From the NCBI GenBank assembly GCA_039680575.1, contig JBDKSP010000094.1, positions 1 through 28,884 on the forward strand: a stretch of DNA of 28,884 nt, in the 5' to 3' direction. Origin of the DNA: Armatimonadota bacterium (GTDB lineage Bacteria; Armatimonadota; UBA5829; DTLH01). Under the pieces are notes generated by a model. The model had not been told where the DNA came from. It did not search any database and saw only the letters and a list, made by a program, of their open reading frames with translations. The position numbers and the translations under genes were made by a program. Shown in pieces: positions 475 through 27,763 of the stretch (position 1 is the first letter of the stretch; every line of letters starts with the position of its first letter).

Positions 475-504
475 TTGACGCTTTATCGGATGAGCTAGTA
501 GAAT
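475..504 (+). promoter_or_regulatory. sigma70-type promoter of the metal-uptake operon
   Basis: TTGACG (475-480), 18-bp spacer, TAGAAT (499-504); strong SD AGGAGGTG at 526-533 before GTG 541. Confidence 0.6.
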
Positions 505-540
505 ACAATCGGTAATTGATATGAGAGGAGGTGATTATCT

Positions 541-894
541 GTGCTGTTCACACGCGCCACACGGATAATGCGATATGATCGCAGATTGATGCTTTTTGTG
601 GCCGCAATCTACCTGTGGATAGGTGTTTGGGCTAATCTGGGGCATAACCATGCTATTCTCAGGTTTTCGGACCATCAATCTCCGGCACTGATCGAATCAT
701 GTGTGTGCGCGCATCAGGACAATCACGCAGAGTGCCCGGCTTGTGTGTGGACACAAACCGCAACTGCCATCACAGCACCGGCGCCAATCAGTATCGTTAC
801 ATTCCTGATGCTGACAAACAACTTCCAAAAATCGACTTCAAGGTCAATCCAAAGACCAAGTTCACCCTCTATACCCCGAGCACCTCCGGTCTAG
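541..894 (+). CDS. DUF2946-like (CruR/CutF-type) leader protein with TM segment, His/Cys motifs and C-terminal RAPP
   Basis: Strong SD; N-terminal hydrophobic segment; HNH, CVCAH, HAECPAC; ends IPRAPPV*; directly upstream of metal-transport genes. Confidence 0.8.
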   Translation: MLFTRATRIMRYDRRLMLFVAAIYLWIGVWANLGHNHAILRFSDHQSPALIESCVCAHQDNHAECPACVWTQTATAITAPAPISIVTFLMLTNNFQKSTSRSIQRPSSPSIPRAPPV

Positions 895-1014
895 TAAGTA
901 ATTTCTCAAAACATATTTGATCAATATCGACAGGACCGATGATACAAGCCGTCGCACATCGCTGCTTGGGCATCGTCGTCGCGCCTGCGCATATCATAAC
1001 CGGAGGGAATTCAA

Positions 1015-2103
1015 TTGAGAAAATTCATAATTCTGCTGGCGCTTATGCCTGCAATCGCATTAGCACAAACAGAACAACCCGACGCCCAGGCAGGCTCTGC
1101 CGGACGGGCATTACAGTTGCCGGACATCAGCGTTGTCGGAAACGTGCTTGGCAACTTTACGACAGATAAATCATTCACAGACAGAAACAACCTGAACCTC
1201 AATGAACTGGAAATAGCGTTTCAGAGCGGCGTATACCCCGGAATCCGGGCAGACGTAATCGTGGCGATGGAAAACGAGGAATCTTATCAGGCATCGCTTG
1301 AAGAAGGCTATCTCACTTTTTCAGAACTCGGCGCCCGGGGACTCGGAGCCCGGCTGGGTAAGTTACGAGCGCCTTTCGGAAAGGTCAACCCGATCCACCC
1401 GCACCACCGCCCTTATGCAGACCAACCGGCTGCGGTAACTGCGTTTCTTGGAGAAGATGGATTATTGATACAGGGTGGCAGCCTGACATATCTTTTCCCT
1501 TCCACAACGACGTTTATCAACTTCGAGGGCGGAAGGTTCAGAGTCGGTGAACAATCAGACGAAGAGGAAACCGAAGCTGAGCCGGGAGTCGGTATCGATG
1601 ATTTTGTCTCGATCGGCAGGTTGTCGTTCGGAAGAGCTATGGACGAACTTTCCGAAGTCGAGTTAGGCCTCTCCGCGCTTCATGGCAGCGGTGTTGATCC
1701 ACTGAACGCCAGTGATCGAGATCATGTCACATTGACCGGAATCGACCTAAGCTACCAATGGTGGCCTACGGCTTTCGGCAAGCTCCTTCTTCGAAGCGAA
1801 TACATGATGTACCGGAGCGACCCCGGTGGTAAAAGCGATACCCGAAGCGGTTATTACCTGCTGGCGACATACAAACCCGGCAGGTACTGGGAATACGGAG
1901 CAAGATACGATAACACGCAATTTCCGGCCCCCACCCCGGGAAAAGAGACCGGATGGACAACATTCGTTACGAAGTATCTGAGCGAATCCACCTACCTCCG
2001 AGGCCAGTTCAAACACAGTAATGCCCCCGACACAGGATCTGCAAACCAGGTGTATTTGCAGATGGTATGGGGCATCGGACCGCACAGTCACACACTGCAA
2101 TAG
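1015..2103 (+). CDS. Outer-membrane beta-barrel/porin-like protein of the type found ahead of Zn/Mn ABC operons
   Basis: Signal peptide (ALA-Q); FGKVNPIHPHHRPY motif; amphipathic beta-strand pattern; His-rich C-terminus IGPHSHTLQ; TTG start with GGAGGG SD. Confidence 0.75.
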   Translation: MRKFIILLALMPAIALAQTEQPDAQAGSAGRALQLPDISVVGNVLGNFTTDKSFTDRNNLNLNELEIAFQSGVYPGIRADVIVAMENEESYQASLEEGYLTFSELGARGLGARLGKLRAPFGKVNPIHPHHRPYADQPAAVTAFLGEDGLLIQGGSLTYLFPSTTTFINFEGGRFRVGEQSDEEETEAEPGVGIDDFVSIGRLSFGRAMDELSEVELGLSALHGSGVDPLNASDRDHVTLTGIDLSYQWWPTAFGKLLLRSEYMMYRSDPGGKSDTRSGYYLLATYKPGRYWEYGARYDNTQFPAPTPGKETGWTTFVTKYLSESTYLRGQFKHSNAPDTGSANQVYLQMVWGIGPHSHTLQ

Positions 2104-2116
2104 GAGTATACAAAAA

Positions 2117-3019
2117 ATGAAACTCAAATATATAATCTCGACCGTCATATTCGCTCTGATGGCCATACCGGCCATTGCAAAAATCGATGTCGTAGCAACA
2201 TCGACCGACCTTGGAGACATTGCAAAGGCCGTAGGCGGCTCCCGGGTCTCGGTATCGACACTGATGCTCGGCACCCAGAACCCTCACGCAGTAGAACCAC
2301 GGCCCAGCCAGGTCGTCAAGCTGAGAAATGCTGATGTGGTAGTGAGGATCGGAATGGACCTCGATATGTGGGCAGACAGCCTGATCGAAGCCGCCCGCAA
2401 CTCGAAAATAAGCAGAGGCGGAAAAGGTTACATCGACGCATCGGACAACATCAGAAAGCTGGAAGTCCCCAGAGGCAAAATCGATGGTTCGCATGGAGAT
2501 ATCCATGTTTACGGCAACCCGCACTACTGGCTGGACCCCGAAAACGCCAAGGTAATTGCGTCTACGATCTTTGTCGGGCTCAAACGGGTTTCTCCGTCCG
2601 ATGCAGACTACTTCAGGAAAAACTATGAAGCCTTCGCGGCTAAAATCAATGGAAAAATGCCGGAATGGAAAGCACGGCTTGCTTCCTGCAAGGGCGAACA
2701 GGTCGTCACTTACCACAAGACATGGATCTACTTCCTGCACCGCTTCGGATTGAAAGAATTCGACAACGTCGAGCCCAAGCCGGGAATTCCGCCGTCACCG
2801 TCACACATCAGTGAGTTGATATCGAGCATGAAACGTGAAAAGGTGAGACTGATCCTGACCGAACCGTTCTACTCACGTAAATACTCCGATATGATCGCTC
2901 GTGCGGCCGGCGCAAAAGTAGTCGTAGTCCCCGCATCCATAGGCGGTGCAAAAGGGATCAATAACTACTTCGAGCTTATGGACAAGATCACAAGCGAAGT
3001 TGCGAGGGCGCTCAAATGA
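2117..3019 (+). CDS. Zn/Mn ABC transporter substrate-binding protein (ZnuA/TroA family)
   Basis: ATG 2117 after AGGAG; signal peptide; NPH..EPRP, GNPHYWLDP, TYH and EPKPGIPPSPSH motifs. Confidence 0.9.
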   Translation: MKLKYIISTVIFALMAIPAIAKIDVVATSTDLGDIAKAVGGSRVSVSTLMLGTQNPHAVEPRPSQVVKLRNADVVVRIGMDLDMWADSLIEAARNSKISRGGKGYIDASDNIRKLEVPRGKIDGSHGDIHVYGNPHYWLDPENAKVIASTIFVGLKRVSPSDADYFRKNYEAFAAKINGKMPEWKARLASCKGEQVVTYHKTWIYFLHRFGLKEFDNVEPKPGIPPSPSHISELISSMKREKVRLILTEPFYSRKYSDMIARAAGAKVVVVPASIGGAKGINNYFELMDKITSEVARALK

Positions 3020-3762
3020 TAATCCGGCTCGAAAATGTCGAGCTGGCTTACGGGCGCGGATGGACACTCTCCGGGATCGATTTTTCGGTCCCGGAGGGGG
3101 ACTTTCTGGCAATAGTCGGACCGAACGGATCGGGAAAAAGCACGCTGCTCAAGGCGATGCTGGGTATTATCAAGCCCAGGCATGGCGAGGTAAAGCGAGC
3201 TCCCGGCATAAGGTTCGGCTATGTCCCCCAAAGCCAGCATATAGATGAGATTTACCCCCTGACAGCGCTCGATATAACACTGATGGGACGCTATTCACTC
3301 ATGGGACCGCTTTCGCGGCCCTCGCGCAAGGACCGTGAAACGGCGCTAGGGTGCCTTTCGGATGTCGGAATGGGACATCTCGCAGACCAGCCTTACAGAA
3401 ACCTGTCCGGCGGGCAAAAACAGAGGACTCTGATAGCGAGAGCGCTTGCATGTGAGTCCAGAGTTATGATACTCGATGAACCTACGAACGATATGGACAT
3501 CGCAGGCGAGGCAGCCATAATGGACCTGCTTCATCACTTGCATAAAGAACATGGGATGACGGTCGTTATGGTAAGCCACCTGCTCAATGTAGTCTCAGGC
3601 TATGCGAAAAACATCGCTCTGATCATAGACGGGAAGATTACGGTGGGGACAGTCGATGATATCCTGTCTCCGGTCAATCTTGCTACGGCATACGGGACAG
3701 AAGTCCGGGTTGCCGATATGGAAGGCCATCGGATAGTAATTGCGGGAGGCACGCGATGCTGA
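3016..3762 (+). CDS. Zn/Mn ABC transporter ATP-binding protein (ZnuC-like)
   Basis: Walker A GPNGSGKST, LSGGQ signature, Walker B ILDEPT, H-loop VSH; ATGA overlap with upstream gene. Confidence 0.93.
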   Translation: MIIRLENVELAYGRGWTLSGIDFSVPEGDFLAIVGPNGSGKSTLLKAMLGIIKPRHGEVKRAPGIRFGYVPQSQHIDEIYPLTALDITLMGRYSLMGPLSRPSRKDRETALGCLSDVGMGHLADQPYRNLSGGQKQRTLIARALACESRVMILDEPTNDMDIAGEAAIMDLLHHLHKEHGMTVVMVSHLLNVVSGYAKNIALIIDGKITVGTVDDILSPVNLATAYGTEVRVADMEGHRIVIAGGTRC

Positions 3763-4559
3763 ATACGTTTCAAGACCCTTTTATGAGGAGCGCGCTTATG
3801 GCGAGCCTGATTGTCGGGGCGGTCTGCGCGTATCTGGGCGTGCATGTCGTGCTCAGGCGGGTGGTCTTTGTCGGAGCAATGCTTTCGCAGGTCTCGGCAG
3901 CAGGCATCGGGCTTGCGCTTCTCTTCGGTTTGAACCCGTCGCTCATCTCGCTTGCTCTCACAATCGTGGGAGTGATCATATTTTCGTTCAGGTCGACCGA
4001 CCGCAGGACCACCAGAGAGAGCCTGATAGGTGTCGGATATGTAATGGCCTCGGCGCTTGCGGTGTTGTTCGTCGCAAAAAGCGCACAGGGAGAGGCGCAT
4101 CTACTGGATGTCCTCTCAGGGAATATCCTGACGGTTATGCCGCAGGAGATCATGTATATGGCAATCGTGGCCGGTGTGGTAGCCTGCCTGCACTTTGCTT
4201 TCGGCAAGCAGTTCCTGTTCACCGGACTCGATGCCGATACCGCACGAGCGGCAGGGTATCGCTCAGGAGCGTGGGACCTGTTGTTTTTCCTGACACTGGG
4301 GGTAACGATAGCGCTTGCGATCAGGCTTGCAGGAGCCCTTCTGGTATTCGGCTTCCTTGTAGTCCCCGCAGTAACCGCGCTTCTTATAACCGACCGGCTT
4401 GGAAGAGCATACGGCATTGCCATCGCTGCTGCAGGAGTGGCTACATTCGCGGGGCTCAACCTATCGTTCACCAAGGACCTGCCTTCCGGTCCGACCATTG
4501 TGGCGGTGCTTTCTGTCATACTTGTAATTACCGCAGGGGTAAGAAAGCTCTGTCACTAA
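3756..4559 (+). CDS. Zn/Mn ABC transporter permease (ZnuB-like)
   Basis: Multiple TM helices; LGVHVVLRR, GNIL, GALLV..FLVVPA and DLPSGPTIV motifs of ABC-3 permeases. Confidence 0.9.
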   Translation: MLNTFQDPFMRSALMASLIVGAVCAYLGVHVVLRRVVFVGAMLSQVSAAGIGLALLFGLNPSLISLALTIVGVIIFSFRSTDRRTTRESLIGVGYVMASALAVLFVAKSAQGEAHLLDVLSGNILTVMPQEIMYMAIVAGVVACLHFAFGKQFLFTGLDADTARAAGYRSGAWDLLFFLTLGVTIALAIRLAGALLVFGFLVVPAVTALLITDRLGRAYGIAIAAAGVATFAGLNLSFTKDLPSGPTIVAVLSVILVITAGVRKLCH

Positions 4560-7059: not shown

Positions 7060-7815
7060 TTACTTGCGCCGTCGTCGGAAGACGAAACCTACCGGCGCCA
7101 GAATTGAGCAGGCAGCAAAGATGGTGCCTGGCTCAGGAACTGCCGCCACGAAGTTTTGGTTCACATCGCTGCTGATTATCTTATAGTCGCCGACCTGTCC
7201 CGTCCCTGTGTAGTTATATCCCAATGCAAGGAACTCAGCGGCCTTATTCTTGACACAAGCATCAGGAGTGTCGCCCAAATAGAATTGGGCGCTGTTTCCG
7301 TCACCAGAAGTCCAGAAGTTATCTCTGCTGCTGCTGTTCCAGTCGCCCACTTCACCTTTCCACGTTGCAAGCTGCAGCGCAGTCCGGTCATATTCCGTTA
7401 TAACAATGGCCTTGCTCCACATATAGGTCAATTTGTTCCAATCACCTTGTGACTCGATAGTCGGAATGCCATTGGAATAGTTACCGACTTTGTAATTGGT
7501 ATAGGACGTTCCGGTGTTGATGAGATGAGCTGAATCTACACAAACAGCAAAGACATCCCAAGATTTCGTTCCTTGCGTAATATGGAGCTCAGGCTGTTTC
7601 CAGTAGATATTATTGCTATAGGTCACGCCACCCCATGTGGAATAAGCCCAGCCGCTTCCAACACCAACATCGCTCTTAATTGCCAGGGTGTCGAGCGGCC
7701 CATTACTCAATCCACTGGCTGAGCTAAGTCCTGGACCCGCAATGACAGAACTGCTGATGCCCAAGCAGAGTGCCAGAGCAAGTGTAATTGCCAAGAGCAA
7801 TTGATAATACTTCAC
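7060..7815 (-). CDS. PEP-CTERM sorting-domain surface protein
   Basis: Signal peptide; C-terminal VPEPG + hydrophobic TM + RRRRK; GTG start with purine-rich SD. Confidence 0.92.
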   Translation of the reverse strand: MKYYQLLLAITLALALCLGISSSVIAGPGLSSASGLSNGPLDTLAIKSDVGVGSGWAYSTWGGVTYSNNIYWKQPELHITQGTKSWDVFAVCVDSAHLINTGTSYTNYKVGNYSNGIPTIESQGDWNKLTYMWSKAIVITEYDRTALQLATWKGEVGDWNSSSRDNFWTSGDGNSAQFYLGDTPDACVKNKAAEFLALGYNYTGTGQVGDYKIISSDVNQNFVAAVPEPGTIFAACSILAPVGFVFRRRRK

Positions 7816-9913: not shown

Positions 9914-11119
9914 TTAGCGGGAAGCTTCTTTCATAACGGACTTCACCGAATCGGCGACGCGGCGCATATAGTCCTCTGTAAGAGTAGGGTGGACCAGGAA
10001 CATCAGAGCCGTCTCCCCCAATTCCCTGGCAACCGGCAGACGCTCAGGTGGCTGAAGCCCCGCGTCGGCAAACGCCTTCTCCAGATAGATCTCGCTGCAA
10101 CTGCCCACAGTGCAGGGAATGCCAAGAGAGTTCAGAGTGACCATAATCCGGTCCCGAGACCACCCATCCTTCAACCTTTCCGGCACAACGTAGGCATAGA
10201 ACTTATAATAAGCATGCCCGAAATCCGAAGACGGCACAGGAACCCTGAGAGCAGGGATTTCACTAAAAGAATCGATCAAAACAGCCGCATTCCGCCGCCT
10301 TGCAGCAACCCAGCCATCGAGCTTGGTAAGCTGCACCCGGCCAATGGCCGCCTGAACCTCAAGCATCCTCCAGTTGGTCCCAAAACTCTCGTGCAGCCAC
10401 CGGAACCCGGGGGCATGCTCGCGGTTATAGACAGCATCATAGCTCTTGCCATGATCCTTATAAGCCCAAGCCTTCTCCCAGACAGCCGGATAGCCGGTAG
10501 TAAGCATCCCGCCCTCACCGCCGGTGGTCATGATCTTGTCCTGGCAGAAGGACCAGGCTGCAGCATCCCCCAGGGAGCCGCAAGGGCGGCCTTTATAAGC
10601 CGCACCATGGCACTGGGCGCAGTCCTCTATAACCTTGAGGTTGTGCTCCTTGGCCAGAGCAAGGATCGGGTCCATATCGCAGGGCCAACCTGCCAGATGC
10701 ACGGTTATAATTGCTTTAGTCTTTGGAGTCAGCGCAGCCTCGACAGTAGCTGCAGTGATATTACCGCTGTCACGATCCACATCGGCAAACACAGGCCTGC
10801 TGCCGCGCACAACAGCCGCACTAGCGGAGGCCAGGAAGGTCCTGGGAGTCACCACTACCTCGTCTCCCGGCATAATTCCCAATGCATAAAGCGCAAGCTC
10901 AAGCGCCAAAGAGCCGTTATGCAGAGCAACACCAAACTCACAACCCACAGCCTGTGCGAACTCCTTCTCAAAAATCCGCCCAACCTCCCCGGTCCAGTAG
11001 TTGACTTTGCCGGATTCGAGGACTGCGGTTACAGCCTCGACCTCGTCCGGGGCAAAGTACGGCCAAGGACCTTGACCTGTGATTGTTTTGTTGCCTGAGT
11101 CGGTGTTGATTTCTTTCAT
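9914..11119 (-). CDS. DegT/DnrJ/EryC1/StrS sugar aminotransferase (PglE-like)
   Basis: IEDCAQCHGA, SFCQDKIMTTGGEGG (PLP lysine), GTNWRM. Confidence 0.93.
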   Translation of the reverse strand: MKEINTDSGNKTITGQGPWPYFAPDEVEAVTAVLESGKVNYWTGEVGRIFEKEFAQAVGCEFGVALHNGSLALELALYALGIMPGDEVVVTPRTFLASASAAVVRGSRPVFADVDRDSGNITAATVEAALTPKTKAIITVHLAGWPCDMDPILALAKEHNLKVIEDCAQCHGAAYKGRPCGSLGDAAAWSFCQDKIMTTGGEGGMLTTGYPAVWEKAWAYKDHGKSYDAVYNREHAPGFRWLHESFGTNWRMLEVQAAIGRVQLTKLDGWVAARRRNAAVLIDSFSEIPALRVPVPSSDFGHAYYKFYAYVVPERLKDGWSRDRIMVTLNSLGIPCTVGSCSEIYLEKAFADAGLQPPERLPVARELGETALMFLVHPTLTEDYMRRVADSVKSVMKEASR

Positions 11120-11164
11120 TACGGAACCTCTGCAAAGAATGTGATGTTCATATTTCAGATTGTG

Positions 11165-11863
11165 CTAAGGGCACTTTTGTATTAAAGCCTGTATAAGTGA
11201 AGCCAAAGACTTGATACTCGAAACCTCATGCTGCGCTGCGTGATCTGCTGATGGCGGCTCAACATGATAATGTAATTGCGGTTTGGTTCTCAACCGGATT
11301 GTATGCCATCCCATTTTGTTAGGTGCAAGAAAATCCTTCTCCGGATTGTCCGCAACATATAAATAGCTGCCTGGCTTACCACCGAACACGTCCCGGCACA
11401 ATTCAAATGCCCGCTGATGAGGTTTCCAGAAGGACTTACCCCAATCATCGGTAAAAACCGGCAATCTGATTACATGCTGCAAGCCCAGAGATGCGAACTT
11501 CAACCGCTGCGAGATTGCTGGACCATCGCTGATAACGCCAAGCTGAATATTATCTTTAGAAAGGTCACTCAACAATTTCCGTATACCGGGATAGAGTCTG
11601 ATGTTCGGAATATGTGACCGGTAAAGAGTGACCAGACTTTCTATATCGAAAGCCCGTGACACCGGTAAAAACTCCTGCATTAGAAGATCGAATGCATTGC
11701 CCCTTATACCGGATTGGAACCCACTCCAAAGATGTGAGAACACCTGAAGCTCATCGACGCCGCAATTCATAGAGACAAACTGGGCAATCCACTTGAACCC
11801 GCTTTTTACATAATCTGACTCTGGATAAAGAGTATCATCGAGATCGAATATTACAACGGCCAA
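11165..11863 (-). CDS. HAD-superfamily hydrolase
   Basis: FDLDDTLY (motif I), ISDG, WKPH, YVADNPEKD; overlaps end of upstream gene. Confidence 0.88.
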   Translation of the reverse strand: MAVVIFDLDDTLYPESDYVKSGFKWIAQFVSMNCGVDELQVFSHLWSGFQSGIRGNAFDLLMQEFLPVSRAFDIESLVTLYRSHIPNIRLYPGIRKLLSDLSKDNIQLGVISDGPAISQRLKFASLGLQHVIRLPVFTDDWGKSFWKPHQRAFELCRDVFGGKPGSYLYVADNPEKDFLAPNKMGWHTIRLRTKPQLHYHVEPPSADHAAQHEVSSIKSLASLIQALIQKCP

Positions 11864-12822
11864 AGCGGTTCCTCAGTAAAATGTTCGACATAGTATCTTG
11901 TCATGTAGAGTCCAGCCTTATAATTACCTATCTCAAGAGGTGGAACTACGCCTCCGGTAAGGGTTTGTACGATCCACTGGGGATAAAGGCCTCCGGCTGC
12001 ATATGCAAGAGGAAACCCACCACCAAACCGAGGGTTGACCTCCGTCAGCACAGGACCACTATCCGTAAGGAATGCCTGCAGCGTCATTGGCCCCCTGCCA
12101 CCAGCCCGGCCAAGTAATGCAAGGATATTCAGAATCCAAGGTCTCAGTTCGCCATCCGCTATGGTTACACCCTCCATGGATTCACCCCCGATAGTCTTCA
12201 ACCGGCGGCGCGGAACATAGTGAACAGGCTGTCCGTCAAAATCCAACAATGCATCAATGGTTATCTCCGGCCCATGAAGCTCCTCCTGGATTATCGGATC
12301 CGGCACAAATTTCAGGGCTGTATCAAGCATATCCTTATGCACCTTGTGAACATGCTGACTGGCGCTGCCATTTCTGGGTTTTACAACAAGATTGTCGGGA
12401 ATACTCGCGTGATCAATGGAACCCGGCAGCCAAGACATCGGCACGGAGATGCCTTGGCTACTTAAAACCTTAAATGTGAGCCACTTATCTCCACATGCGT
12501 TTATTACCTGTTCTGAAGACACAAGTGCCTTGCATCCGTTTGATTCCAGATCAGGTGCGATATGAGCCAGAACAGGGAGTTCCGTATCTATTGCAGGAAC
12601 AACAAGCCCTATATTATGGGCCTTGATTATACCCCACAGTTGCTCCACGTACGCCGGATTTGTATTTTGCGTCAGGAACGCAGTTTTGTCTGCAAGATAT
12701 AATGCAGGTGCCAAAGGATCGATATCAGCAGCAATTATCTCATTGCCTGTTTCTATGGCTGCATCCCTAAATGCCTTGAGCAGCGAAGTCCTGCGTCCAG
12801 CGCTTAGTAGAAGTATATTCAC
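11851..12822 (-). CDS. ATP-grasp protein (carbamoyl-phosphate-synthase-like, polysaccharide-cluster type)
   Basis: MNILLLSAGRR, VPAIDTEL, DKW, KPRNGSAS, EVNPRFGGG. Confidence 0.88.
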   Translation of the reverse strand: MNILLLSAGRRTSLLKAFRDAAIETGNEIIAADIDPLAPALYLADKTAFLTQNTNPAYVEQLWGIIKAHNIGLVVPAIDTELPVLAHIAPDLESNGCKALVSSEQVINACGDKWLTFKVLSSQGISVPMSWLPGSIDHASIPDNLVVKPRNGSASQHVHKVHKDMLDTALKFVPDPIIQEELHGPEITIDALLDFDGQPVHYVPRRRLKTIGGESMEGVTIADGELRPWILNILALLGRAGGRGPMTLQAFLTDSGPVLTEVNPRFGGGFPLAYAAGGLYPQWIVQTLTGGVVPPLEIGNYKAGLYMTRYYVEHFTEEPLWPL

Positions 12823-13448
12823 TGGCTGTGTCCTCTCAATGGTTGGACTCGGGCTGGATTACCAAAAGCTGTGACACCATCGGGAATATCGGACACTACA
12901 ACCGAGCCTGCGCCTATAATGCAACCCGAGCCGATTGAAATAAGTGGGCGAGCGCAGGACCCAATGCCTACAAGGGTTTCACATCCGACATGCACCCCAC
13001 CAGCCAACCTAACTCCGGATGATATGTGGGCCAGGTCCGAGATAACGCAATCGTGACCTACCGAACAGGAAGTATTGAGTATACAGCCCTGCCCGATGAT
13101 AGCCTGGCTATTTACCACAGCTTGCGCCACCACAACGGTGCCTTCGCCGATAGATGCGCTTGGAGATATAATCGCGCTCGGATGGATGATCACCGGAAAG
13201 ATCCAGCCATGTGACTTCCCATAATCAAACAATTCTCTGCGTGTATTGTTTAAGCCTATTCCCATGACGACCATAGAGCCATCCGGGATCAGTTCCTTCG
13301 GTCCTATCACGCGATATCCGAGGACCTCGCAGTCGCACTTTTGGGAATCATCATCGACAAAACCTAAAATATCATATCCGGTCAAACCGGCAATTTCGGC
13401 AACAACTGCACCGTGTCCCCCGGCTCCGACTACATATATCCTCTTCAA
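12819..13448 (-). CDS. Sugar acetyltransferase, NeuD/PglD family
   Basis: GAGGHG N-terminus, IIHPSA, hexapeptide repeats, catalytic GHD, GNPAR. Confidence 0.92.
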   Translation of the reverse strand: MKRIYVVGAGGHGAVVAEIAGLTGYDILGFVDDDSQKCDCEVLGYRVIGPKELIPDGSMVVMGIGLNNTRRELFDYGKSHGWIFPVIIHPSAIISPSASIGEGTVVVAQAVVNSQAIIGQGCILNTSCSVGHDCVISDLAHISSGVRLAGGVHVGCETLVGIGSCARPLISIGSGCIIGAGSVVVSDIPDGVTAFGNPARVQPLRGHSQ

Positions 13449-14065
13449 TGCTCCACCTTTTCCCTCGATGTACCTGTACTGCCTGTAAAGATCGGCATTG
13501 TAGCATCGGCAGCATGTGAAATCCCTTCACGTTTAAAGACCTTAACAACAGTCATAAAGAGTATCTTTATATCGAGCCAGAATGAGTGGTTATCGACATA
13601 CCACACATCCAGATCGAACTTCTCTTCCCAAGACAGCGCATTTCGACCGTTCACCTGCGCCCATCCGCTGATACCTGGCCTCACCTCATGCCGCCTTGCC
13701 TGGTGGGGCGAGTATAAAGGCAAATACTCCACCAGCAGAGGTCTCGGTCCGACGAGGCTCATATCGCCCTTCAACACATTAAACAACTCAGGTAATTCAT
13801 CGACACTTGTAGCTCGAAGTAACTTTCCAAGTCGAGTTAACCTTTTAACACCGGGAAGCAGGTTTCCCTTGCTGTCGAGTAGATTCCGCATAGAGCGGAA
13901 CTTGTACATTTTGAATATCTTCCCATTGAGACCGGGACGCTCCTGGCAGAACAGCACAGGGAAGCCCATACTAACAGCAACGAGACCAGCAACAATAAAC
14001 AGAAACGGCAGCAGAACCAAAAGTAAACTTAACGATACACATACATCAAATATGCGCTTAACCAT
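13445..14065 (-). CDS. Monotopic undecaprenyl-phosphate sugar phosphotransferase (PglC-like)
   Basis: KRIFD, YKFRSM, DELPEL.NVLKGDMSLVGPRP, RPGISGWAQVNGRN. Confidence 0.93.
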   Translation of the reverse strand: MVKRIFDVCVSLSLLLVLLPFLFIVAGLVAVSMGFPVLFCQERPGLNGKIFKMYKFRSMRNLLDSKGNLLPGVKRLTRLGKLLRATSVDELPELFNVLKGDMSLVGPRPLLVEYLPLYSPHQARRHEVRPGISGWAQVNGRNALSWEEKFDLDVWYVDNHSFWLDIKILFMTVVKVFKREGISHAADATMPIFTGSTGTSREKVEH

Positions 14066-15272
14066 TTACGGATGCCTCGCTTGTCGCTGTATGTGCTTCC
14101 GGAACATCCAATCCCTTCGACTTCAGAAGACGGATATACTCCTGATAGACAGCTTCCCATATATCTTCTGGTCGGAAATCACGCAGAACGCGTTCACGAC
14201 CTGCTTGACCATGCTTTCGGCGTAGATCTGGATCATCCAGATACGCTTTAATAGCTCTGGCAAGTGACTGGCTGTCACGAGGTGGAACAAGAGTGCCTGT
14301 TACACCATCCTGTACAGCATCAATACAGCCGGGTATTTGGGTCGCTACCACTGGAAGTCCCATAGCAGCTGCCTCCATGGGCACGTTAGGAAACCCTTCC
14401 CTATAAGTTGGCAGAACACAGATATCCATTGCAGTATAAAATGGAGCAGAATCTTCCTGCCCACCAGTCAAAACGATTCTATTGCCGTTCTTAATCAACT
14501 GTATAGTTTCGGACGGAACAGGGTCTTGAGGCTCAAATGGTCCTATTAGCATCAAGTAAACCTTCGGATACTGATCAACAATACTTTGCCATGCTTCTAT
14601 CAGCTCAACAATTCCTTTATCTCGAACAATGCGGCCAACAAATCCAATCACCACTGCATCTACTGGAATACCGTATTGCAACCTTATATCGCTGCGATTG
14701 GTGCCCCAGCTTGCAGGATTAAACCGCTGCGCCGCATCCACACCATTCCCGCTGCCACTGCGCAACGCTTTGATCTTATCAGCAGAACATATCCCTTCAT
14801 TGACCGCAACATCTCGAATCGAATGGCTGACGCAAAGCACTTGATGGGCCAATGAACAGGAGATATTTTCGGTAGCTATTAGTATTTTTCGCTTCAAACC
14901 AGTTGCCGTCATAAAAGGCAATCCTCTGATATGGTAGATCCTGACGGGAGCACCAGCCATCCAAGCACTGATCATCCCTAAAAGGCCACCCTTAGGTGTA
15001 TGTGCATGAACTATCTCCGGTTTGATACGCCTTATGCTACGCCAAAGCTGCCATAAAGAGCGAATATCCTTTACGGGGGTTATACTCCGAAGCATCTCAA
15101 CAGCAGAAACAGTTATCTGCTCTCTATCTGCAAACTCCTCAAGCTGCTTGCCTGGTGATGAGATAGCGTGAACCTCAAAGCCACGATCTTTCATATAGCT
15201 TACCTGCCCACGCACAAAATTGAGGGACTGGGGTACTGTTGTTATATGGCATATTTTCATAGGAATATTCAT
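14058..15272 (-). CDS. Glycosyltransferase family 4 (CapM-like)
   Basis: HAHTPKGGLLG, GSGNGVD, FVGRIVRDKGI, REGFPNVPMEA. Confidence 0.92.
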   Translation of the reverse strand: MNIPMKICHITTVPQSLNFVRGQVSYMKDRGFEVHAISSPGKQLEEFADREQITVSAVEMLRSITPVKDIRSLWQLWRSIRRIKPEIVHAHTPKGGLLGMISAWMAGAPVRIYHIRGLPFMTATGLKRKILIATENISCSLAHQVLCVSHSIRDVAVNEGICSADKIKALRSGSGNGVDAAQRFNPASWGTNRSDIRLQYGIPVDAVVIGFVGRIVRDKGIVELIEAWQSIVDQYPKVYLMLIGPFEPQDPVPSETIQLIKNGNRIVLTGGQEDSAPFYTAMDICVLPTYREGFPNVPMEAAAMGLPVVATQIPGCIDAVQDGVTGTLVPPRDSQSLARAIKAYLDDPDLRRKHGQAGRERVLRDFRPEDIWEAVYQEYIRLLKSKGLDVPEAHTATSEASVNG

Positions 15273-15311
15273 TCACATATTTTCCTAAAATCCAGGTATT
15301 CAAGGAACAGC

Positions 15312-16676
15312 TCATTCACTAACATTGTTTACTATTAGCCGATATTTCCCACTTCTTTCGCAAGGAATATCTTCTACTAAGTCAATGGCAATGTCCATAT
15401 CCTTGCCAAATTTATACTGGATCTCATTACGCACTAGCGCCTGATGTCCCACCACAAAACGATCAGTATCGACAACCAGTTTCACATTAAGCTTTGATAT
15501 CTCATCCTGTATAATCTGCATCTTCACAATAGAACATGGTAAGTTCTTCACAATGTTAGCAACGTTGCCCAAATTAATTTTCGTTCCATTTGTTGCAACC
15601 AGATAGTCTGCCACCCGTCCATCTATTCTAGTAATTAATGGAGTATGCATGCCACATGGGCAGCATTTTGAAGGATCATCTAATACCATACTGTCGCCTA
15701 TTCGGTATCTGATGAGTGGAGTGCCATATGTCGTGAAACTAGTTACCAATATCTCGCCTGTATCATCAAGTGTTTCAATTACACCGGACGATAAGTCATA
15801 GTGCATGTTTCCTTGAGAGCATTCATACACAAACGGTGCACCCTCGGACGAGGCATACTGATCTCGCACCGGACAACCGAAGACTCTTTCTATTACTTCT
15901 CTGTGTGCCGGAGTAACAGTTTCAGACGTCGGAAAGACCGCAACAGGAGAAAAGCTGAACCTTAGTCCATGTCTTTCTACAAACGCTGCAATGTCATATA
16001 TGGATGAAACAAAACCATCTATTGCAGCAGGTTGGAACTTATTTAGGGCTGCTATGTAATATGGTATATTCTCATTATTATGATGGAATGACGAAAATAC
16101 CATTTGCTTCGATGCTGCATTATAACGCCAGAATACTTTATTCCTCTGATTTGGAGGCACAATATGCTTTCCGTTGAACGTTGCTTTCTTCATACGGAGA
16201 TTCACGAAACCATGCTTCATCTTGAAATGATCGAGTGTGGCCATGCGCTCGCAACTATTATCTTCTGTAAAGTACACAATCAGCGACTTGCCCGTAGTTC
16301 CGCCTGTATGAGATTCACAAGCGCTGCTTTTATCAACGGCAACAACAAGATCAATATTTTCCCTTAGCTGCTCTTTGGTTACTATTGGCAGTATCTTGAT
16401 GTCTTCTATGCTCCCGATAGCATTGATATCGATGCCAGCGTAGAGGTCCCGATAGAATTTGCTATTACGCACGGCATGTGCCAACAACTTCACCAACTGA
16501 TCCAGTTGATATGCTTGCTGCTCTTGCCTCGACAAACAATCAAATTGTTTGAGAAACGACAAATATTCATAATAGCGTTTCCCGTAGCGCTGCCTGTTTA
16601 CCATGTATCCATAGATGGTTGCCATGGCATTCTGTGAGAAAATAGGCGATCTATCATAGATATTCTGATACTTCAT
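15312..16676 (-). CDS. CapK / phenylacetate-CoA ligase-family adenylate-forming enzyme
   Basis: IYDRSPIFSQN N-terminus, TGGTTG P-loop, YASSEG, PLIRYRIGD, SGKYR. Confidence 0.88.
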   Translation of the reverse strand: MKYQNIYDRSPIFSQNAMATIYGYMVNRQRYGKRYYEYLSFLKQFDCLSRQEQQAYQLDQLVKLLAHAVRNSKFYRDLYAGIDINAIGSIEDIKILPIVTKEQLRENIDLVVAVDKSSACESHTGGTTGKSLIVYFTEDNSCERMATLDHFKMKHGFVNLRMKKATFNGKHIVPPNQRNKVFWRYNAASKQMVFSSFHHNNENIPYYIAALNKFQPAAIDGFVSSIYDIAAFVERHGLRFSFSPVAVFPTSETVTPAHREVIERVFGCPVRDQYASSEGAPFVYECSQGNMHYDLSSGVIETLDDTGEILVTSFTTYGTPLIRYRIGDSMVLDDPSKCCPCGMHTPLITRIDGRVADYLVATNGTKINLGNVANIVKNLPCSIVKMQIIQDEISKLNVKLVVDTDRFVVGHQALVRNEIQYKFGKDMDIAIDLVEDIPCERSGKYRLIVNNVSE

Positions 16677-16773
16677 TATTGCACCCCATCAAACTACTAG
16701 CAAATGGAAGGAGAATATTTTCTTTATCAAGCTGAATATCACTGTAACCAATATAACTTTGCCTTAATACGAT

Positions 16774-18108
16774 TTATGATGCATTATTGGTTATAGAATA
16801 CCTGGACTTCATAGCGATTAACAAGCCAAAAGCAACCCAAAAAGATCTATGTGAGTCAAAGTTCCCGAAGCAACCCTGTAGAGCAAAAGAAATAAAAAGT
16901 ATAAAGACAGTTTGAGCATATAGTTGCTTGTTTTGCCGATAAAAATTCCAAGCAGCCTTTAGAACACTAGCAAACACAGCAATAAATAATACACCTCCTA
17001 CAACACCTGTTTCCGCGAAGTATGTTAAATATATATTGTGAGGCATCTGCAAGACATCTGACATACGAGATTTTAAAAAATGCGTGAATTGCGCGAGTCC
17101 AATACCGGTCAACGTATATTCGGAAATAGCTTTAAGTGCCGTTTTCCATAATTCGAAGCGTCCATTATCGACATTTTCTGTTCTTGTTAATCTTGTGATG
17201 ACATATGCATTTGATGTGTATAAAAGATATCCAACTGATATAGCTGACAAAGCTATCTTTAAAACTGCAGAAAACACTTTTCGTGTATTCCGCCAGTCTA
17301 CTGCAGACAGTATTATTATAAGCATAGCAGCTAGTAAAGCAGACCGCGAAGCAGTACCTAAAATACCACCAAATAGAAGCGGTATAGGTAAAAAAGAAAA
17401 GATATTGCGCCTTGGAGACAATCTTGCAATTATAAAGCACATCGCGACATTGAGAAACAAATATTCGCCCAATAAATTAGGATTTTCAAAAGTGGCAGAA
17501 GGTCTCAAAACCCCAACGACAAATGACTCATATATTGTATACGTGGCAATGGCTGTAGAGGTAAGAATGGAAACTGTCAAGAATAAAACAACCTTTTGGA
17601 TAATCAGCCCTTCCAAAAGAAATACAATTGCCATACACCAGACCACACCGATTACTAATTTGGCACATTGCAAAAATGCTTCTTTGGGCGAGCCATATAA
17701 AGATAAGAACGAAAGAGGAAAAACAGCTTGTATTATAGTTAGTACCAAAAGATAAATAATAAAAACCATGTAGGGTTTCATTATTCGATATACAGTTAAT
17801 CTCCCTGTACCACATATATTAATGATAATTAGTAGTAAAACAACTGCAACAACAGCATCTCCTAATGACATATTTATACCAGCAATCACTTTGTGAAAAG
17901 GCCAAGTGATTGCTAGTAGAAATAATAGGAGATTATTAGCTATATACAATCTCTGGGTATTGCAGGAATCCATCTGCCTGTTCGAGGATAGTAGATTATT
18001 GTAAACCCTCTTGCCATAAACGCGTCCTATGTTGTTATAGTATGCAGCAATGTGACTCATATCGAATATGTTCTTATAACTGGAAAGCACAACATGATTA
18101 GTATGCAA
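16774..18108 (-). CDS. O-antigen ligase / Wzy_C-family membrane protein (true start may be downstream, e.g. ATG 18060 or 17973)
   Basis: Many TM helices; RPSATFENPN, TASRSA, GRFELW, GIGL, PHNIYL...ETGVVG. Confidence 0.82.
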   Translation of the reverse strand: MHTNHVVLSSYKNIFDMSHIAAYYNNIGRVYGKRVYNNLLSSNRQMDSCNTQRLYIANNLLLFLLAITWPFHKVIAGINMSLGDAVVAVVLLLIIINICGTGRLTVYRIMKPYMVFIIYLLVLTIIQAVFPLSFLSLYGSPKEAFLQCAKLVIGVVWCMAIVFLLEGLIIQKVVLFLTVSILTSTAIATYTIYESFVVGVLRPSATFENPNLLGEYLFLNVAMCFIIARLSPRRNIFSFLPIPLLFGGILGTASRSALLAAMLIIILSAVDWRNTRKVFSAVLKIALSAISVGYLLYTSNAYVITRLTRTENVDNGRFELWKTALKAISEYTLTGIGLAQFTHFLKSRMSDVLQMPHNIYLTYFAETGVVGGVLFIAVFASVLKAAWNFYRQNKQLYAQTVFILFISFALQGCFGNFDSHRSFWVAFGLLIAMKSRYSITNNAS

Positions 18109-18114
18109 TGTTAA

Positions 18115-19407
18115 TTAGCTTAACTTGGTTGACTTGATCCGCAACACCACTTTTGACATATAGAATATCGCTCCAAGAAGGAGAATAACGGATGAGCAAC
18201 ACAAAGCATATGCGGCTCCTGCTAAACCGTATCTGGGGATTAAGTAAAAACTTAGAATGCAGGTTGCTGCCGTTGCAAGTAAGTATAAGGGAATCTGATT
18301 TACAAGACATCTAGCGGCAGTTAAGGCATAAATAAATATGCTGCCAGTAAAACTTATTGCTGAAGCTATGGCCATAATAGTAAATACCTCAGTATGTTCT
18401 GCATATTCAGGTGTATATAGCACTGTGAGCAACTCTTTACCAAAACAGGCAGCTAACAAAACACCTAACGCACCAAACACGATGAATACTATAACAAGTC
18501 TTATTAGCAGATGCATAAATGCTGACATATCAGCAGCTACATAATATCTGGCCAATCTAGGTGCAGCAGATTGTCCTAATGCGCCAGAAACTGTAAGGCC
18601 TGCAACCATAGAATAGGCCATGGCCGCATATATGCCTAGTTCCCTTTGCCCCATAAATCTCTCAATAGTATAACGTGGAATGTTTGCATTTAGTGAGACT
18701 AGCATAGTTACAATTCCAAGTGGTAAAGCAATAACGGCTAATTGTGTTAGTTTCGTTGGTATCCACAGAGGACATATACTAGTAATATTGACTTGTTTTT
18801 TGATAATTCTACTGACTCGCAACTCATAAAACACCAGCACTGATAACCAAGCTAAAAGCAATCCCAAACTTCCAAATAGAATTGATTTTGTGTAGTATAT
18901 TCCGCATGCTAGAAAAACTACAGATAAAGGCCCTTTAATCATTTGCGCAATTGCAATGAGATTCATCCGTTCGTGTAATTGAAACAGTCCTTGGAATATA
19001 TCACTAATAGACTCTACAAATTTCGCAGCACCAATTGTTACAACAACCAGCATAACATCAAGATGGTAACTACTTACTAAGGTAATACCAATCACAAGAA
19101 TCAAAGCCAAACACGACATCAGTAGTCGCAACCCCAGGTAAATATTAAATGAGTAATTGCCTCTTGCATCAGTGGCTTGAATAGACCTAAGTTGCAGATT
19201 CGTAAACATAAAAATAGGCGCTGTTAGTGCTAATCCCAAAGAGAATTGTCCAACCATTTTTGGATTCCCAAACTTAGCAATAAGCATCAACATCGCCCAC
19301 TGGCTTGCTGCATACACTACATTCCCAGCAAAAGTCCAAGAGAAGTTCTTGCGCAGGCTCAGGCCAGTGGTAAGTGGTTGTTCAGATTGCAGACTATCAA
19401 CAGCCAT
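18115..19407 (-). CDS. wzx: Polysaccharide flippase (Wzx/MOP family)
   Basis: [15 protein letters not shown], about 12 TMs, [21 protein letters not shown] 19407 overlaps end of epimerase gene. Confidence 0.85.
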
Positions 19408-20407
19408 AGTACTCTCTGTACCACCCCACAAACCTCTCTATCCCCACCTCAATCGGCGTATCAGGCTTGAAGCCGACATCATTCATCAGCGCATCCACGT
19501 CCGCAAATGTCGCCGGAACGTCGCCGGGCTGCATAGGCAAGAGGTTCATCTGCGCTTTCTTGCCGAGGCACTTCTCCAGCACTTCTATGAAATGCAGCAG
19601 CTCCGTTGGGCTGTGGTTTCCGATGTTATAGACCTTATAAGGCGCAGGGCTTTGTGCCGGAGTCAGGAACTCTGCATCGGCATAAGCGGCGTTCGGCTGG
19701 GGGACGTTGTCCAGCACCCGCACAACACCTTCCACAATATCATCTATATAAGTGAAGTCCCGCTTCATCTTGCCGTAGTTGTAGACATCTATCGGCCTGC
19801 CTTCCAGAATGGCTTTCGTGAAGATGAAAAGCGCCATATCCGGCCTGCCCCAGGGGCCGTAGACCGTGAAGAACCGGAGGCCCGTGGTCGGCAGCCCGTA
19901 GAGGTGGCTGTAGGTGTGCGCCATCAGCTCGTTTGCCTTCTTCGTGGCAGCATAGAGGCTGACCGGATGGTCGACGTTGTCATCCACACTGAAGGGCAGC
20001 TTCTTGTTCGATCCGTATACCGAGCTGGATGAGGCATACACCAGATGCTCGACCCCATTGTGGCGGCAGCCTTCCAATATATTGCAAAAACCTACCAGGT
20101 TGGAGTCGATATAGGCGTGCGGGTTCTGGAGAGAGTATCTCACGCCTGCCTGCGCGGCGAGATGGACTACCCGCTGCGGTTTTTCCGCTGCGAAGTATTC
20201 CGCCATTCCGGCACGGTCGGCTACATCCAGCTTTGTGAAACTGAAGCCTGGCCGCTCCACCAACTGGGCAAGTCTGGCTTCTTTCAGCCTTATATCGTAA
20301 TAGTCGTTTAGATTGTCGATGCCGACGACCTCATCTCCACGGTCAAGCAGCCGCTTGCTTACGTGAAACCCTATGAAACCAGCAGCACCTGTGACTAATA
20401 TCTTCAT
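19397..20407 (-). CDS. NAD-dependent epimerase, UDP-glucuronate 4-epimerase/CapI type
   Basis: [44 protein letters not shown]. Confidence 0.95.
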
Positions 20408-20476
20408 TGGTTATGATTTGACCTTTTCCAAGCAACGTTGTTCTTCTTACTCGCCATTATGTAGACTACATAATGC

Positions 20477-20640
20477 TTTCCTGGATGCTGAGTCAAGCTC
20501 AGCATGACGTTTTTGGCGTCAGTATGACGTTTTGGACCCGGTATGACGTTGTAGACCCAGATTACCAGCCGTGCAAGCACGGCTATGGCCGGCACGGAGA
20601 CCGGCCACTACGTTAAAACACAGAGACCGGCGCCACTACG
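20477..20640. repeat. Composite REP-like cluster (GTCA-type core, ATGACGTT units, GTAG-type REP hairpins)
   Basis: 34-bp core at 20477-20510; ATGACGTT three times at ~20-bp spacing; 20543-20615 matches 23596-23668 at 72/73. Confidence 0.85.
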
Positions 20641-21927
20641 CTAAAGTCCGTAGCAAACTATATCCGGCCTTAGTTCCCCTTGCGGGATCACTGATTTGAC
20701 GTCTACTACGACACCGCCGGGCTTGACCCTTTCCACTAATTCAGACAGTCCATTATTAAGATAATGCCTATGCGGAACTGCCAGTATGAGTGCGTCCAGG
20801 TCATTGAATACGTCCAGAGAAGATAATCGGACTCCGTATTCCTGCAATGCTTCGCCCGGATCCGCCATCGGGTCGTGCACAAATGGTGTTATTCCATACT
20901 CTTTCAGCTCTGCGATGATGTCCGGGACCCGGCTGTTGCGCAGGTCCGGCACATTCTCTTTGAAAGTGAGCCCCAGCACACCGACTTTTGCCTGCCTCAG
21001 CGGGACATCGCAGTTTACTAATAGCTTAACCGTTTTCTGAGCCACATAGCTGCCCATTCCATCGTTTATGCGGCGTCCGGCCAGGATTACCTGCGGGTTG
21101 TAGCCCAGTTCTTCGGCCTTTGTCGTGAGATAGTACGGGTCAACCCCGATGCAGTGTCCTCCCACTAACCCCGGAGTGAACGGCAGAAAGTTCCACTTGG
21201 TCCTTGCGGCAGCCAACACATCCTTCGTGGCGATGCCCAAAAGGTCGAATATCTGTGCAAGCTCGTTCATGAGCGCTATGTTCAGGTCGCGCTGAGTGTT
21301 TTCTATGACTTTTGCCGCTTCCGCAACCTTTATTGAAGGTGCTTTGTGGACGCCTACGTCTACGATGGCTGCATAGGCCGATGCTACACGTTCCAATGTC
21401 TCCTGGTCTTCACCGGAGACCACCTTGGTTATGGTCTGAAGTGTATGCAGCTTATCTCCGGGGTTGATCCTCTCCGGCGAATAACCTAGTTTGAAATCTA
21501 TGCCCTGCTTCAGCCCGGATTCGCGGGCGAGGATGGGACCGCATATCTCTTCGGTCACACCAGGATAGACGGTGGACTCGTAGACAACCACTGCACCCCT
21601 GCCGAGGACACTTCCTACTGTCTCAGAAGCCCGTTTGACCGGCGTAAGGTCAGGCCGGTTGGCATTATCTATCGGTGTCGGGACGGCCACGACGAAAAAG
21701 GTGACATCCTTCATATCCAGGGGATCGCTTGTCCAGATTATCGTCGTATCTGCCAGCTCCCGCTCTGTGCATTCGCCGGTTTTATCCCGGCATTGCTTCA
21801 GCGATTCGACCCGGTCTTTATTAATATCGAAGCCGATGGTACCCGGGAACTTCTTCGCGAATGCCAATGCAACGGGAAGCCCGACATATCCGAGGCCTAC
21901 TACCGCGATTTTCTCACTCATATCCAC
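20641..21927 (-). CDS. UDP-N-acetylhexosamine 6-dehydrogenase (WbpO/TviB/CapL-like)
   Basis: GLGYVGLP, VYESTVYPG, YSPERINPGD, AKVIENTQRD, GLVGGHCIGVDPYY, GLTFKEN. Confidence 0.95.
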   Translation of the reverse strand: MDMSEKIAVVGLGYVGLPVALAFAKKFPGTIGFDINKDRVESLKQCRDKTGECTERELADTTIIWTSDPLDMKDVTFFVVAVPTPIDNANRPDLTPVKRASETVGSVLGRGAVVVYESTVYPGVTEEICGPILARESGLKQGIDFKLGYSPERINPGDKLHTLQTITKVVSGEDQETLERVASAYAAIVDVGVHKAPSIKVAEAAKVIENTQRDLNIALMNELAQIFDLLGIATKDVLAAARTKWNFLPFTPGLVGGHCIGVDPYYLTTKAEELGYNPQVILAGRRINDGMGSYVAQKTVKLLVNCDVPLRQAKVGVLGLTFKENVPDLRNSRVPDIIAELKEYGITPFVHDPMADPGEALQEYGVRLSSLDVFNDLDALILAVPHRHYLNNGLSELVERVKPGGVVVDVKSVIPQGELRPDIVCYGL

Positions 21928-21928
21928 G

Positions 21929-23539: not shown

Positions 23540-23587
23540 CTATCTCCCCGCAGGTATGGATTTTACTTTTACGACACTGAACAAACG

Positions 23588-23756
23588 ACGTCAGCATGAC
23601 GTTGTAGACACAGATTACCAGCCGTGCAAGCACGGCTATGGCCGGCACGGAGACCGGCCACTACGTTAGGGCATAAAGACCGGCTACTACATTAACGGAG
23701 ACCTTTAAAGGCAGTCCGAGGCAATGAATGATGCCGTATAGTTCAGTATGATGCTG
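23588..23756. repeat. Second composite REP-like cluster
   Basis: 73-bp near-identical copy of 20543-20615, decayed GTAG-REP copy near 23675-23691, and degenerate ATGATGC units resembling 8335-8364. Confidence 0.8.
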
Positions 23757-23987
23757 CGATACCGTGCTTACGCTTGTGGTGTATATGTGAGGCTATTATC
23801 TAAAGAAGAAAATCTGTCTTTAAGGTGTAGTGTCTGACACCTGCAGCCCCATGCCAGCACCACATCAGCATGCATCATGGAATGCATGCCATATATCGGA
23901 CTCTTTTGGCTATCAAATTAGTCGCATATAATACGCAGAACCCCAAGATGTAAACTACACTGGCAAATCTTATGCACATCCTATTAT

Positions 23988-24016
23988 AATTTAGCTTATC
24001 AGGCAGGCATTGTCAA
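23988..24016 (-). promoter_or_regulatory. Internal sigma70-type promoter upstream of the exosortase gene
   Basis: TTGACA (24016-24011), 17-bp spacer, TAAATT (23993-23988), with an overlapping TATAAT just downstream. Confidence 0.55.
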
Positions 24017-24092
24017 GGCGAGCAGGCTTTTTGACAGTGATTTCCGGCAAAAACCGGCACATATACCGGGGTTGGTGTCATTTCAGAGGAAC

Positions 24093-26440: not shown

Positions 26441-26508
26441 TATTCTAGATTTCTCGCTAAATCATTCATTATTTGAAGCTGTTGCGTCAGCATGACATCG
26501 TGCCCGGC

Positions 26509-27762: not shown

Positions 27763-27763
27763 G

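Follow-up and report, generated by a model that had tools for sequence, protein, structure and literature searches.

The window, by which we mean the whole 28,884-nucleotide stretch of Armatimonadota DNA that was analysed, carries on its forward strand a short leader gene, which is the first gene of a metal-homeostasis-type operon consisting of a porin gene and then a ZnuA-family gene with its transport partners. Homologues with named sources likewise put the relatives of this genome in Armatimonadota. The features referred to below are as follows, with coordinates, strand and basis (SD, Shine-Dalgarno sequence).

475..504, + strand: putative sigma-70-like promoter preceding the leader (10 of 12 consensus matches)
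527..533, + strand: strong SD of the leader gene (sequence)
541..894, + strand: leader ORF of 117 aa, a DUF2946/CruR-CutF-like arrest-peptide candidate (sequence and orthologue alignment)
586..636, + strand: hydrophobic N-terminal segment, a presumed signal or anchor (hydropathy peak at residues 16-30)
643..651, + strand: His-x-His (His35-x-His37) following the hydrophobic segment (leader alignment)
733..744, + strand: CxxC, C65-C68, 44 residues ahead of the Arg of RAPP (sequence)
820..879, + strand: C-rich, G-poor stretch ahead of the stall site, a candidate Rho loading site (20 C, 6 G)
877..888, + strand: Arg-Ala-Pro-Pro codons; the ORF ends R-A-P-P-V-stop (sequence)
883..890, + strand: anti-SD, predicted 5' arm of a long-range helix (folding)
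906..994, + strand: two predicted spacer hairpins, 906-920 and 924-994, joining the arms (fold)
999..1007, + strand: 3' arm 999-1006, with the porin SD at 1002-1007 (sequence and folding)
1015..2103, + strand: outer-membrane porin with a TTG start, no Pfam family (AlphaFold2 barrel, pLDDT 83)
2117..3019, + strand: ZnuA-family metal-binding protein (best NCBIfam model AztC, below its cut-off)
3016..3762, + strand: ZnuC/AztA-like ABC ATPase (profile matches)
3756..4559, + strand: ZnuB/AztB-like ABC-3 permease (profile matches)

A promoter-like site is found at the same place in the locus L002 of the same genus. The His35 column is invariant in an alignment of 54 leaders, and the distance from CxxC to RxPP is 43-45 residues in 77 of 81 leaders, a set that had been pre-selected for a CxxC 36-56 residues upstream. 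The 60 nt ahead of the first proline codon of the motif (Pro1) have a mean C>G skew of about 0.3 over 80 leaders, compared with 0.01 in the porin coding sequence. RAPP is an established stalling motif (PMC10951233, PMC12992588). The ApdA/ApdP structures, as described in the open text of PMC10951233, show RAPP peptides arrested with the P-site tRNA carrying RAP and with Pro in the A site. This geometry places 883-888 in the decoding centre; by analogy, the stalled ribosome would have Pro1 (883-885) in its P site and Pro2 (886-888) in its A site.

The leader itself has no Pfam match. The DUF2946 profile (PF11162) did not match it at E<=1, and a search of its own genome with this profile gave no match either. 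The same profile was matched by 12 of the 54 orthologous leaders at E<=0.1, with a best value of 3e-6, and the leader feature matches an Atlas cluster with 12% DUF2946. By profile, the leader is not a formal member of DUF2946. It agrees with two published rules for leaders of the CruR/CutF type. The spacing of 44 residues between CxxC and RAPP is within 1-2 of the 45 given in PMC9426467. The open text of PMC9973294 describes an N-terminal export signal or membrane segment, a length below 150 aa and PP within the last 15 residues, and our leader has 117 aa, a hydrophobic N-terminal stretch (judged by hydropathy only) and PP at residues 115-116. We regard it as a metal-sensor-like arrest-peptide candidate, for which both arrest and metal response are predicted. 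A second leader with HxH, CxxC and RSPP exists in the same genome (C28:5036-5353, reverse strand, locus L220; profile E 5e-10, hhalign 94%), where it precedes an ABC ATPase-permease cluster with His-rich genes. Over the 224-nt spacer of that locus no clear helix between stall site and SD was found (-6.7 kcal/mol, rank 0.87).

The structural model of the porin gave Foldseek matches to the porins OmpM1, ChiP and OmpT with E of about 1e-11. Its family is unnamed (no Pfam match) and comprises 523 relatives with conserved HPH and C-terminal GxHxH motifs. The gene after the porin belongs to the ZnuA family in 41 of 46 loci tested (of 79), and the porin, being nearly always ahead of such a gene, is a candidate metal-selective porin. 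Copper-related targets like those of CruR and CutF were not found in the operon, which consists of the porin and a ZnuA/AztC-type ABC importer. From this content zinc is the likeliest ligand of the leader, and manganese is also possible. No Fur/Zur-family gene was found in this genome although it has two ZnuA-family systems and one DtxR/MntR gene; at 96.8% completeness this does not prove that such a gene is absent. The genome also contains rho and efp.

An earlier note on this DNA had proposed that the arrest codons are themselves an anti-SD for the porin gene, so that a ribosome parked on RAPP frees the porin SD and release of the arrest hides it. The coordinates are confirmed. Positions 883-890, that is, the codons of Pro115 and Pro116 and two bases of Val117, are the exact reverse complement of 999-1006; GGAGG lies within this 3' arm and the SD (1002-1007) is 7 nt ahead of the TTG at 1015, the spacer between leader and porin being 120 nt. 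When 860-1030 was folded, the 8-bp helix was present in the minimum free energy (MFE) structure, where it closes a three-way junction over the hairpins 906-920 and 924-994. The whole fragment has z = -2.0, with 7 of 200 shuffles equally stable. The pair probability of the helix is 0.89-1.0 in four local windows, and equally so at 20-60 C. In longer folds of the naked RNA the probability falls to 0.54 (700-1100), 0.43 (541-1100) and 0.06-0.07 (480/505-1100), because 881-885 pairs with 621-625 and 888-890 with 920-922; the leader SD (527-533) also competes slightly for the anti-SD when the naked RNA is folded at full length (P 0.05-0.12). The probability of the helix is 0.96 if the leader upstream of 862 is kept unpaired, as it would be under translation. 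The expectation that the helix belongs to the low-energy folds thus holds for the local MFE, and a fold of the whole naked mRNA does not retain it.

With the stall footprint kept unpaired, the porin start was predicted to open at a cost of 6.9 kcal/mol in place of 12.4, an easing of the kind that the earlier note had anticipated, and a block at least 5 codons ahead of Arg113 had no effect on this cost. An elongating or terminating ribosome anywhere at 868-892 also melts the helix in the model. In these calculations SD opening by the footprint block is partial, with about 7 kcal/mol left. As for chance, CCT-CCG accounts for 103 of the 937 Pro-Pro dicodons in the long ORFs of this genome, and synonymous recoding of the locus gives a duplex p of 0.23; ranked by SD opening cost, the native letters at the third positions come 2nd of 64. 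The caution of the earlier note that an 8-nt match can arise by chance is therefore justified, and the match at this locus alone proves little. Since it is compatible with chance, the claim of more than chance rests on the orthologue tests. In the locus L002 the helix has 10 bp and both spacer hairpins are retained, with one double change. Rfam gave no match in 410-1200, its four sub-threshold matches being confined to 322-405, and a known riboswitch over the leader and spacer was rejected on this ground. A consensus scan called no intrinsic terminator in the spacer on the + strand.

Orthologous loci were collected by a porin search, which found the gene in 138 of 401 Armatimonadota genomes. 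We took 110 of the better matches together with two metagenome loci, one of which duplicated L084, giving 112 loci. Both a CxxC...R-x-P-P leader and a signal-like porin start were found in 81 of these, and one duplicate was dropped, so that 80 loci were analysed, spanning 20 family codes and one metagenome contig. Among the others, 27 had no leader by the criteria used (3 of them with less than 400 nt upstream), 2 had a leader without a usable start, and 2 were unprocessed. The 16S tail was not found in this genome; start codons were chosen with a generic anti-SD, partly by SD strength. The p-values given here are overstated, because kin are not independent and the starts were picked partly by SD strength. 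One locus (L022) has two tandem RAPP leaders ahead of a single porin gene, at about 1035 and 1402 on the porin strand.

For the duplex test a 24-nt stall region, beginning at the codon ahead of Pro1, was matched either to the SD region of its own locus or to those of other families. Over the 80 loci the mean is -15.9 kcal/mol for the own partner and -11.1 kcal/mol for other-family partners, with the own partner better than the median in 65 loci and within the best 5% in 32. When one locus per genus is used, the values are -15.5 vs -11.1 +/- 0.4 kcal/mol, and the best of 20,000 permutations reached -12.6 kcal/mol. The difference has the expected direction in 19 of 21 family groups; partner specificity is missing in family f20 (5 loci). 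The excess is sharply limited in position. On the leader side it appears only in 18-nt windows whose first base lies between -6 and +12 from Pro1 (peak -3.9), and on the SD side only in windows whose last base lies between -14 and +4 from the start codon (peak -4.3), with own/other differences elsewhere within about 1 kcal/mol. Because the excess is confined to the stall-site and SD windows, shared base composition does not explain the pairing.

Folds of the whole region gave a similar result: at least 4 bases of the SD region are paired with the stall region in 63 of 80 loci compared with 75 of 160 swapped controls, and the helix is absent in 11 of the 80. Spacers range from 29 to 376 nt (median 101), and the helix forms in 20 of the 22 loci with spacers of 150-376 nt. 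The mean opening cost over the 80 loci is 13.9 kcal/mol for free RNA, 13.6 with a ribosome 15 codons upstream and 8.4 with a ribosome on Pro1. The stall block eases opening by at least 2 kcal/mol in 60 of 80 loci. These comparisons establish the anatomy of the present sequence, the conservation of the leader and its context, and, across the phylum, a complementarity of stall footprint and SD that is specific to the partner. The switch reading of the earlier note is accordingly backed in its stall-footprint geometry, and the opening that it requires is predicted to be partial.

The codon at Pro1 is CCT in 45 of 80 leaders, compared with 323 of 2174 (15%) porin Pro codons and 88 of 413 other Pro codons of the leaders. 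It accompanies a GGAGG SD (28/36 vs 17/44, p = 0.0006; counted per genus, 12/16 vs 12/31, p = 0.03), and in 65 of 80 loci synonymous recodings pair less well than the native codons. In the 28 loci from 14 genera that share the register of the window, covariation is seen outside the fixed CCTCC/GGAGG core, in columns +5 to +7: 19.3 of 42 cells are Watson-Crick, against 11.6 +/- 2.8 (p about 0.01). Within one genus (12 loci), 85% of cells pair, where slid partners give 41-55%, and in 7 cells both sides have changed (11/500 shuffles), but the overall covariation score is not above shuffles (125/500). The orthologue check proposed earlier, namely that the codons are kept and covary with the SD, is partly borne out, by the enrichment of CCT, its tie to GGAGG and the columns +5 to +7, and is not borne out by the one-genus score.

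The stronger statement that the Pro-Pro codons are always the anti-SD was rejected. They play this role (at least 3 of their six bases used) in only 25 of 80 loci, while in 44 of 80 the helix lies mostly just downstream of Pro-Pro, with its first base at +9 or before in 30, at +10 to +15 in 11 and later in 3. The slid anti-SD sits on the next codons or on the stop codon, and the slid helices are perfect 9-14-bp stems of unrelated sequences, without CCTCC at Pro1. The idea that the same nucleotides serve as stall site and RNA switch would therefore apply in 25 of the 80 loci, and gives way to a displaced anti-SD in the 44. Judged from these alignments and folds, the conserved feature is an anti-SD inside the footprint of the stalled ribosome, and the Pro-Pro register is one case of it.

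A search with the leader profile gave 40 further places outside porin loci, of which 35 were usable. Their own partners pair at -13.6 kcal/mol vs -11.3 +/- 0.46, a value reached by 0 of 20,000 permutations, and 17 of 35 fold. The targets are TonB-system, prepilin-type, efflux and ATPase genes. In the loci L207-L245 they include ExbB/TolQ genes (5), TonB-dependent receptor-like genes, a heavy-metal P-type ATPase, an outer-membrane efflux protein, ABC ATPases, and PEP-CTERM and PHP proteins. Since both import and export targets occur, the sign of the metal effect may differ between loci. Eight leaders (L221, L229, L232, L233, L237, L238, L240 and L242) stand ahead of prepilin-type N-methylation/DUF1559 genes. 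In all eight the stall region folds onto the SD, with 6.9-10.8 bases paired, and this arrangement suggests that prepilin-type/DUF1559 proteins behind such leaders may be metal-regulated.

Acidobacteriota loci were obtained from one Acidobacteriota protein query, and 44 of 63 porin loci were usable (13 without a leader, 6 without a start). Leader and spacing are conserved and 25 of 44 fold, with weak partner specificity (-16.5 vs -15.2 +/- 0.45 kcal/mol; best 5% in 4 of 44). CCT is enriched there too (17/44 vs 102/1301) and is not associated with GGAGG (p = 0.75, 44 loci), so it may have a second cause. On the sequence evidence, the rule of an anti-SD in the footprint is firm within Armatimonadota and no more than suggestive elsewhere.

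When compared with known systems, for which we rely largely on the open text of the cited papers, the locus resembles CutF-cutO of Rhodobacter capsulatus in its DUF2946-like exported leader with a Cys motif and a C-terminal Pro motif (PMC9973294, PMC8456105, bioRxiv 10.1101/2025.02.05.636593), and there, too, stalling opens a stem that hides the downstream SD (PMC9973294). In CutF the stem-loop lies in a 40-bp intergenic region, copper induces stalling and the target is a detoxifying oxidase, whereas here the 5' arm lies in the stall footprint, the spacer has 120 nt (29-376 in orthologues), the leader is of the form CxxC-44-RAPP and the target is an importer. The CutF authors expect stem unfolding to be limited to short intergenic regions (PMC9973294). 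Their construct (Fig. S2A) kept the last 4 cutF codons with the stem, so the CutF arm may also begin near the gene end. CruR (Bp2923)-bfrG of Bordetella pertussis shares the CxxC about 45 residues ahead of RAPP, the export signal and the long spacer (PMC9426467). It likewise heads a metal-uptake operon, with stalling as the ON state that metal releases and a C-rich stretch ahead of the stall site. It differs in its output, which is Rho-dependent termination, in its metal, copper, and in its target, a TonB-dependent transporter (PMC9426467). The word 'Shine' is absent from the available text of that paper, which says that RAPP uses frequent codons and notes the lack of any described riboswitch for Cu or Zn (PMC9426467).

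In SecM-secA, MifM-yidC2, CliM-yidC2 and uDF_RQH-secDF2 an arrested ribosome likewise unfolds a stem that sequesters an SD (PMC7897499, PMC10987492, PMC13183943), and the CliM stem includes the 3' end of the leader coding sequence (PMC13183943, PMC10987492, PMC7897499, LudP preprint 10.64898/2026.10.26.761930). These systems monitor protein export rather than metal, and their accessible descriptions are of local stem-loops. For the RAPP peptides ApcA, ApdA and ApdP no SD-sequestering hairpin was predicted, according to the open text of PMC7897499. The RAPP/RGPP small ORFs of Fujiwara et al. are a genome-wide class that includes small secreted RAPP proteins before TonB receptors and copper genes, and they were proposed as metal sensors (PMC12992588). 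That survey differs in having no mRNA-level output, and 'stem-loop', 'Shine' and 'zinc' occur 0 times in its main text (PMC12992588). A stem that hides a downstream SD and has its 5' arm beneath the stalled ribosome, as in SecM, MifM and CutF, is predicted here by computation, and the view that a CruR-like sensor peptide would here drive a translational attenuator of the SecM/CutF type is partly supported. Stall-opened SD hairpins are already known from SecM, MifM, CliM and CutF. In the literature covered (largely open text; figures and supplements may show overlapping stems) we found no report in which RAPP codons, or an anti-SD in the stall footprint, pair across a long spacer in DUF2946-like leaders, nor, figures and supplements again aside, one in which a zinc-type importer is controlled by a leader of this sort. 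What was not found in print is thus the long-range sliding form placed ahead of such an importer.

We conclude that the leader and the helix probably form a stall-operated translation switch, of a known general kind but in a long-range form, and that this switch is likely a translational attenuator under the control of a metal-sensing arrest peptide. The leader would be translated from its strong SD, and the ribosome would arrest as in ApdA/ApdP, with RAP carried by the P-site tRNA and with Pro in the A site. Its footprint would cover 883-890 and leave the porin SD (1002-1007) freer, so that the porin and the ZnuA/C/B-type importer would be made when metal is scarce (ON). Metal, most likely zinc in view of the operon, would be bound by the nascent HxH/CxxC region and release the arrest, as proposed for CruR. 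With the ribosome gone, the helix would close over the folded 120-nt spacer and hide the SD before the weak TTG (OFF), and Rho-dependent polarity may come after the masking of the SD. For an importer operon the sign of CruR would be sensible, with scarce metal giving stall and ON and bound metal giving OFF. We infer stalling, ligand, direction and folding in vivo. Distal anti-SD elements have been reported to repress translation in vivo in B. subtilis (open text of PMC12697547).

The C>G bubble in the 60 nt ahead of Pro1, seen here and on average in the 80 leaders, together with the rho gene of this genome, the spacing of 44 against 45 residues in CruR and the uptake operon as target (PMC9426467, open text), also fits a CruR-type mechanism. 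In that case the stall would protect a C-rich Rho site, Rho-dependent termination would take place in the spacer, and the helix would be secondary, deepening repression or setting mRNA decay. We consider this unlikely as the main mechanism, since it leaves unexplained the partner-specific complementarity that is confined to stall site and SD. The two are compatible, because masking of the SD would in itself leave the porin mRNA open to Rho, and a Rho layer on top of the switch is plausible. More improbable still is a helix that is real but static, keeping basal translation low and being opened by any ribosome that finishes the leader, as a form of long-spacer coupling without metal-regulated arrest. 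The melting of the helix by any ribosome at 868-892 in the model would agree with it, but without ligand-controlled arrest it is difficult to account for the invariant His, the CxxC and RxPP and the fixed distances between them, and RAPP is, in the accessible text of PMC10951233 and PMC12992588, a stalling motif already established.

Chance is the least probable of these accounts, and we give it very little weight. It holds that Pro-Pro codons resemble an anti-SD by nature and that any GGAGG will match them, and the commonness of these codons here, the recoding p of 0.23 and the pairing of swapped controls in 75 of 160 folds all speak for it. Against it stand the own-partner excess over a generic match, the sharp positional limits and the sliding 9-14-bp anti-SDs that lack CCTCC, by which chance at the level of the phylum is largely refuted.

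The attenuator reading has consequences for related leaders. The signal output of RAPP/DUF2946-like leaders with long spacers varies, being Rho in CruR and a short hairpin in CutF, with no hairpin found for ApcA, ApdA and ApdP. A footprint-anchored long-range anti-SD would offer this class one simple and testable output, for which exact silent mutations are predicted. It also calls for caution, in that published Pro-to-Ala or codon changes in RAPP leaders may have changed RNA pairing as well. The locus points to a post-transcriptional sensor for a zinc-type importer. A broader reading is possible, and we offer it tentatively: the RAPP metal-sensor leaders of Armatimonadota would form a general long-range switch, in which an anti-SD, free to change in sequence and register, always lies in the stall footprint and can pair with an SD as far off as about 380 nt, with no limit to short intergenic regions, and at the present locus a zinc-responsive arrest peptide would replace Zur in the control of zinc uptake.

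Elsewhere in the window, a GC-rich hairpin with a T run at 364-395, after the gene at 2-322, reads by eye as a terminator and is unlisted by the consensus scan. Judged from translations only, a PEP-CTERM-like gene lies at 7060-7815 and a polysaccharide/exosortase-type biosynthesis cluster extends over 9914-28609.
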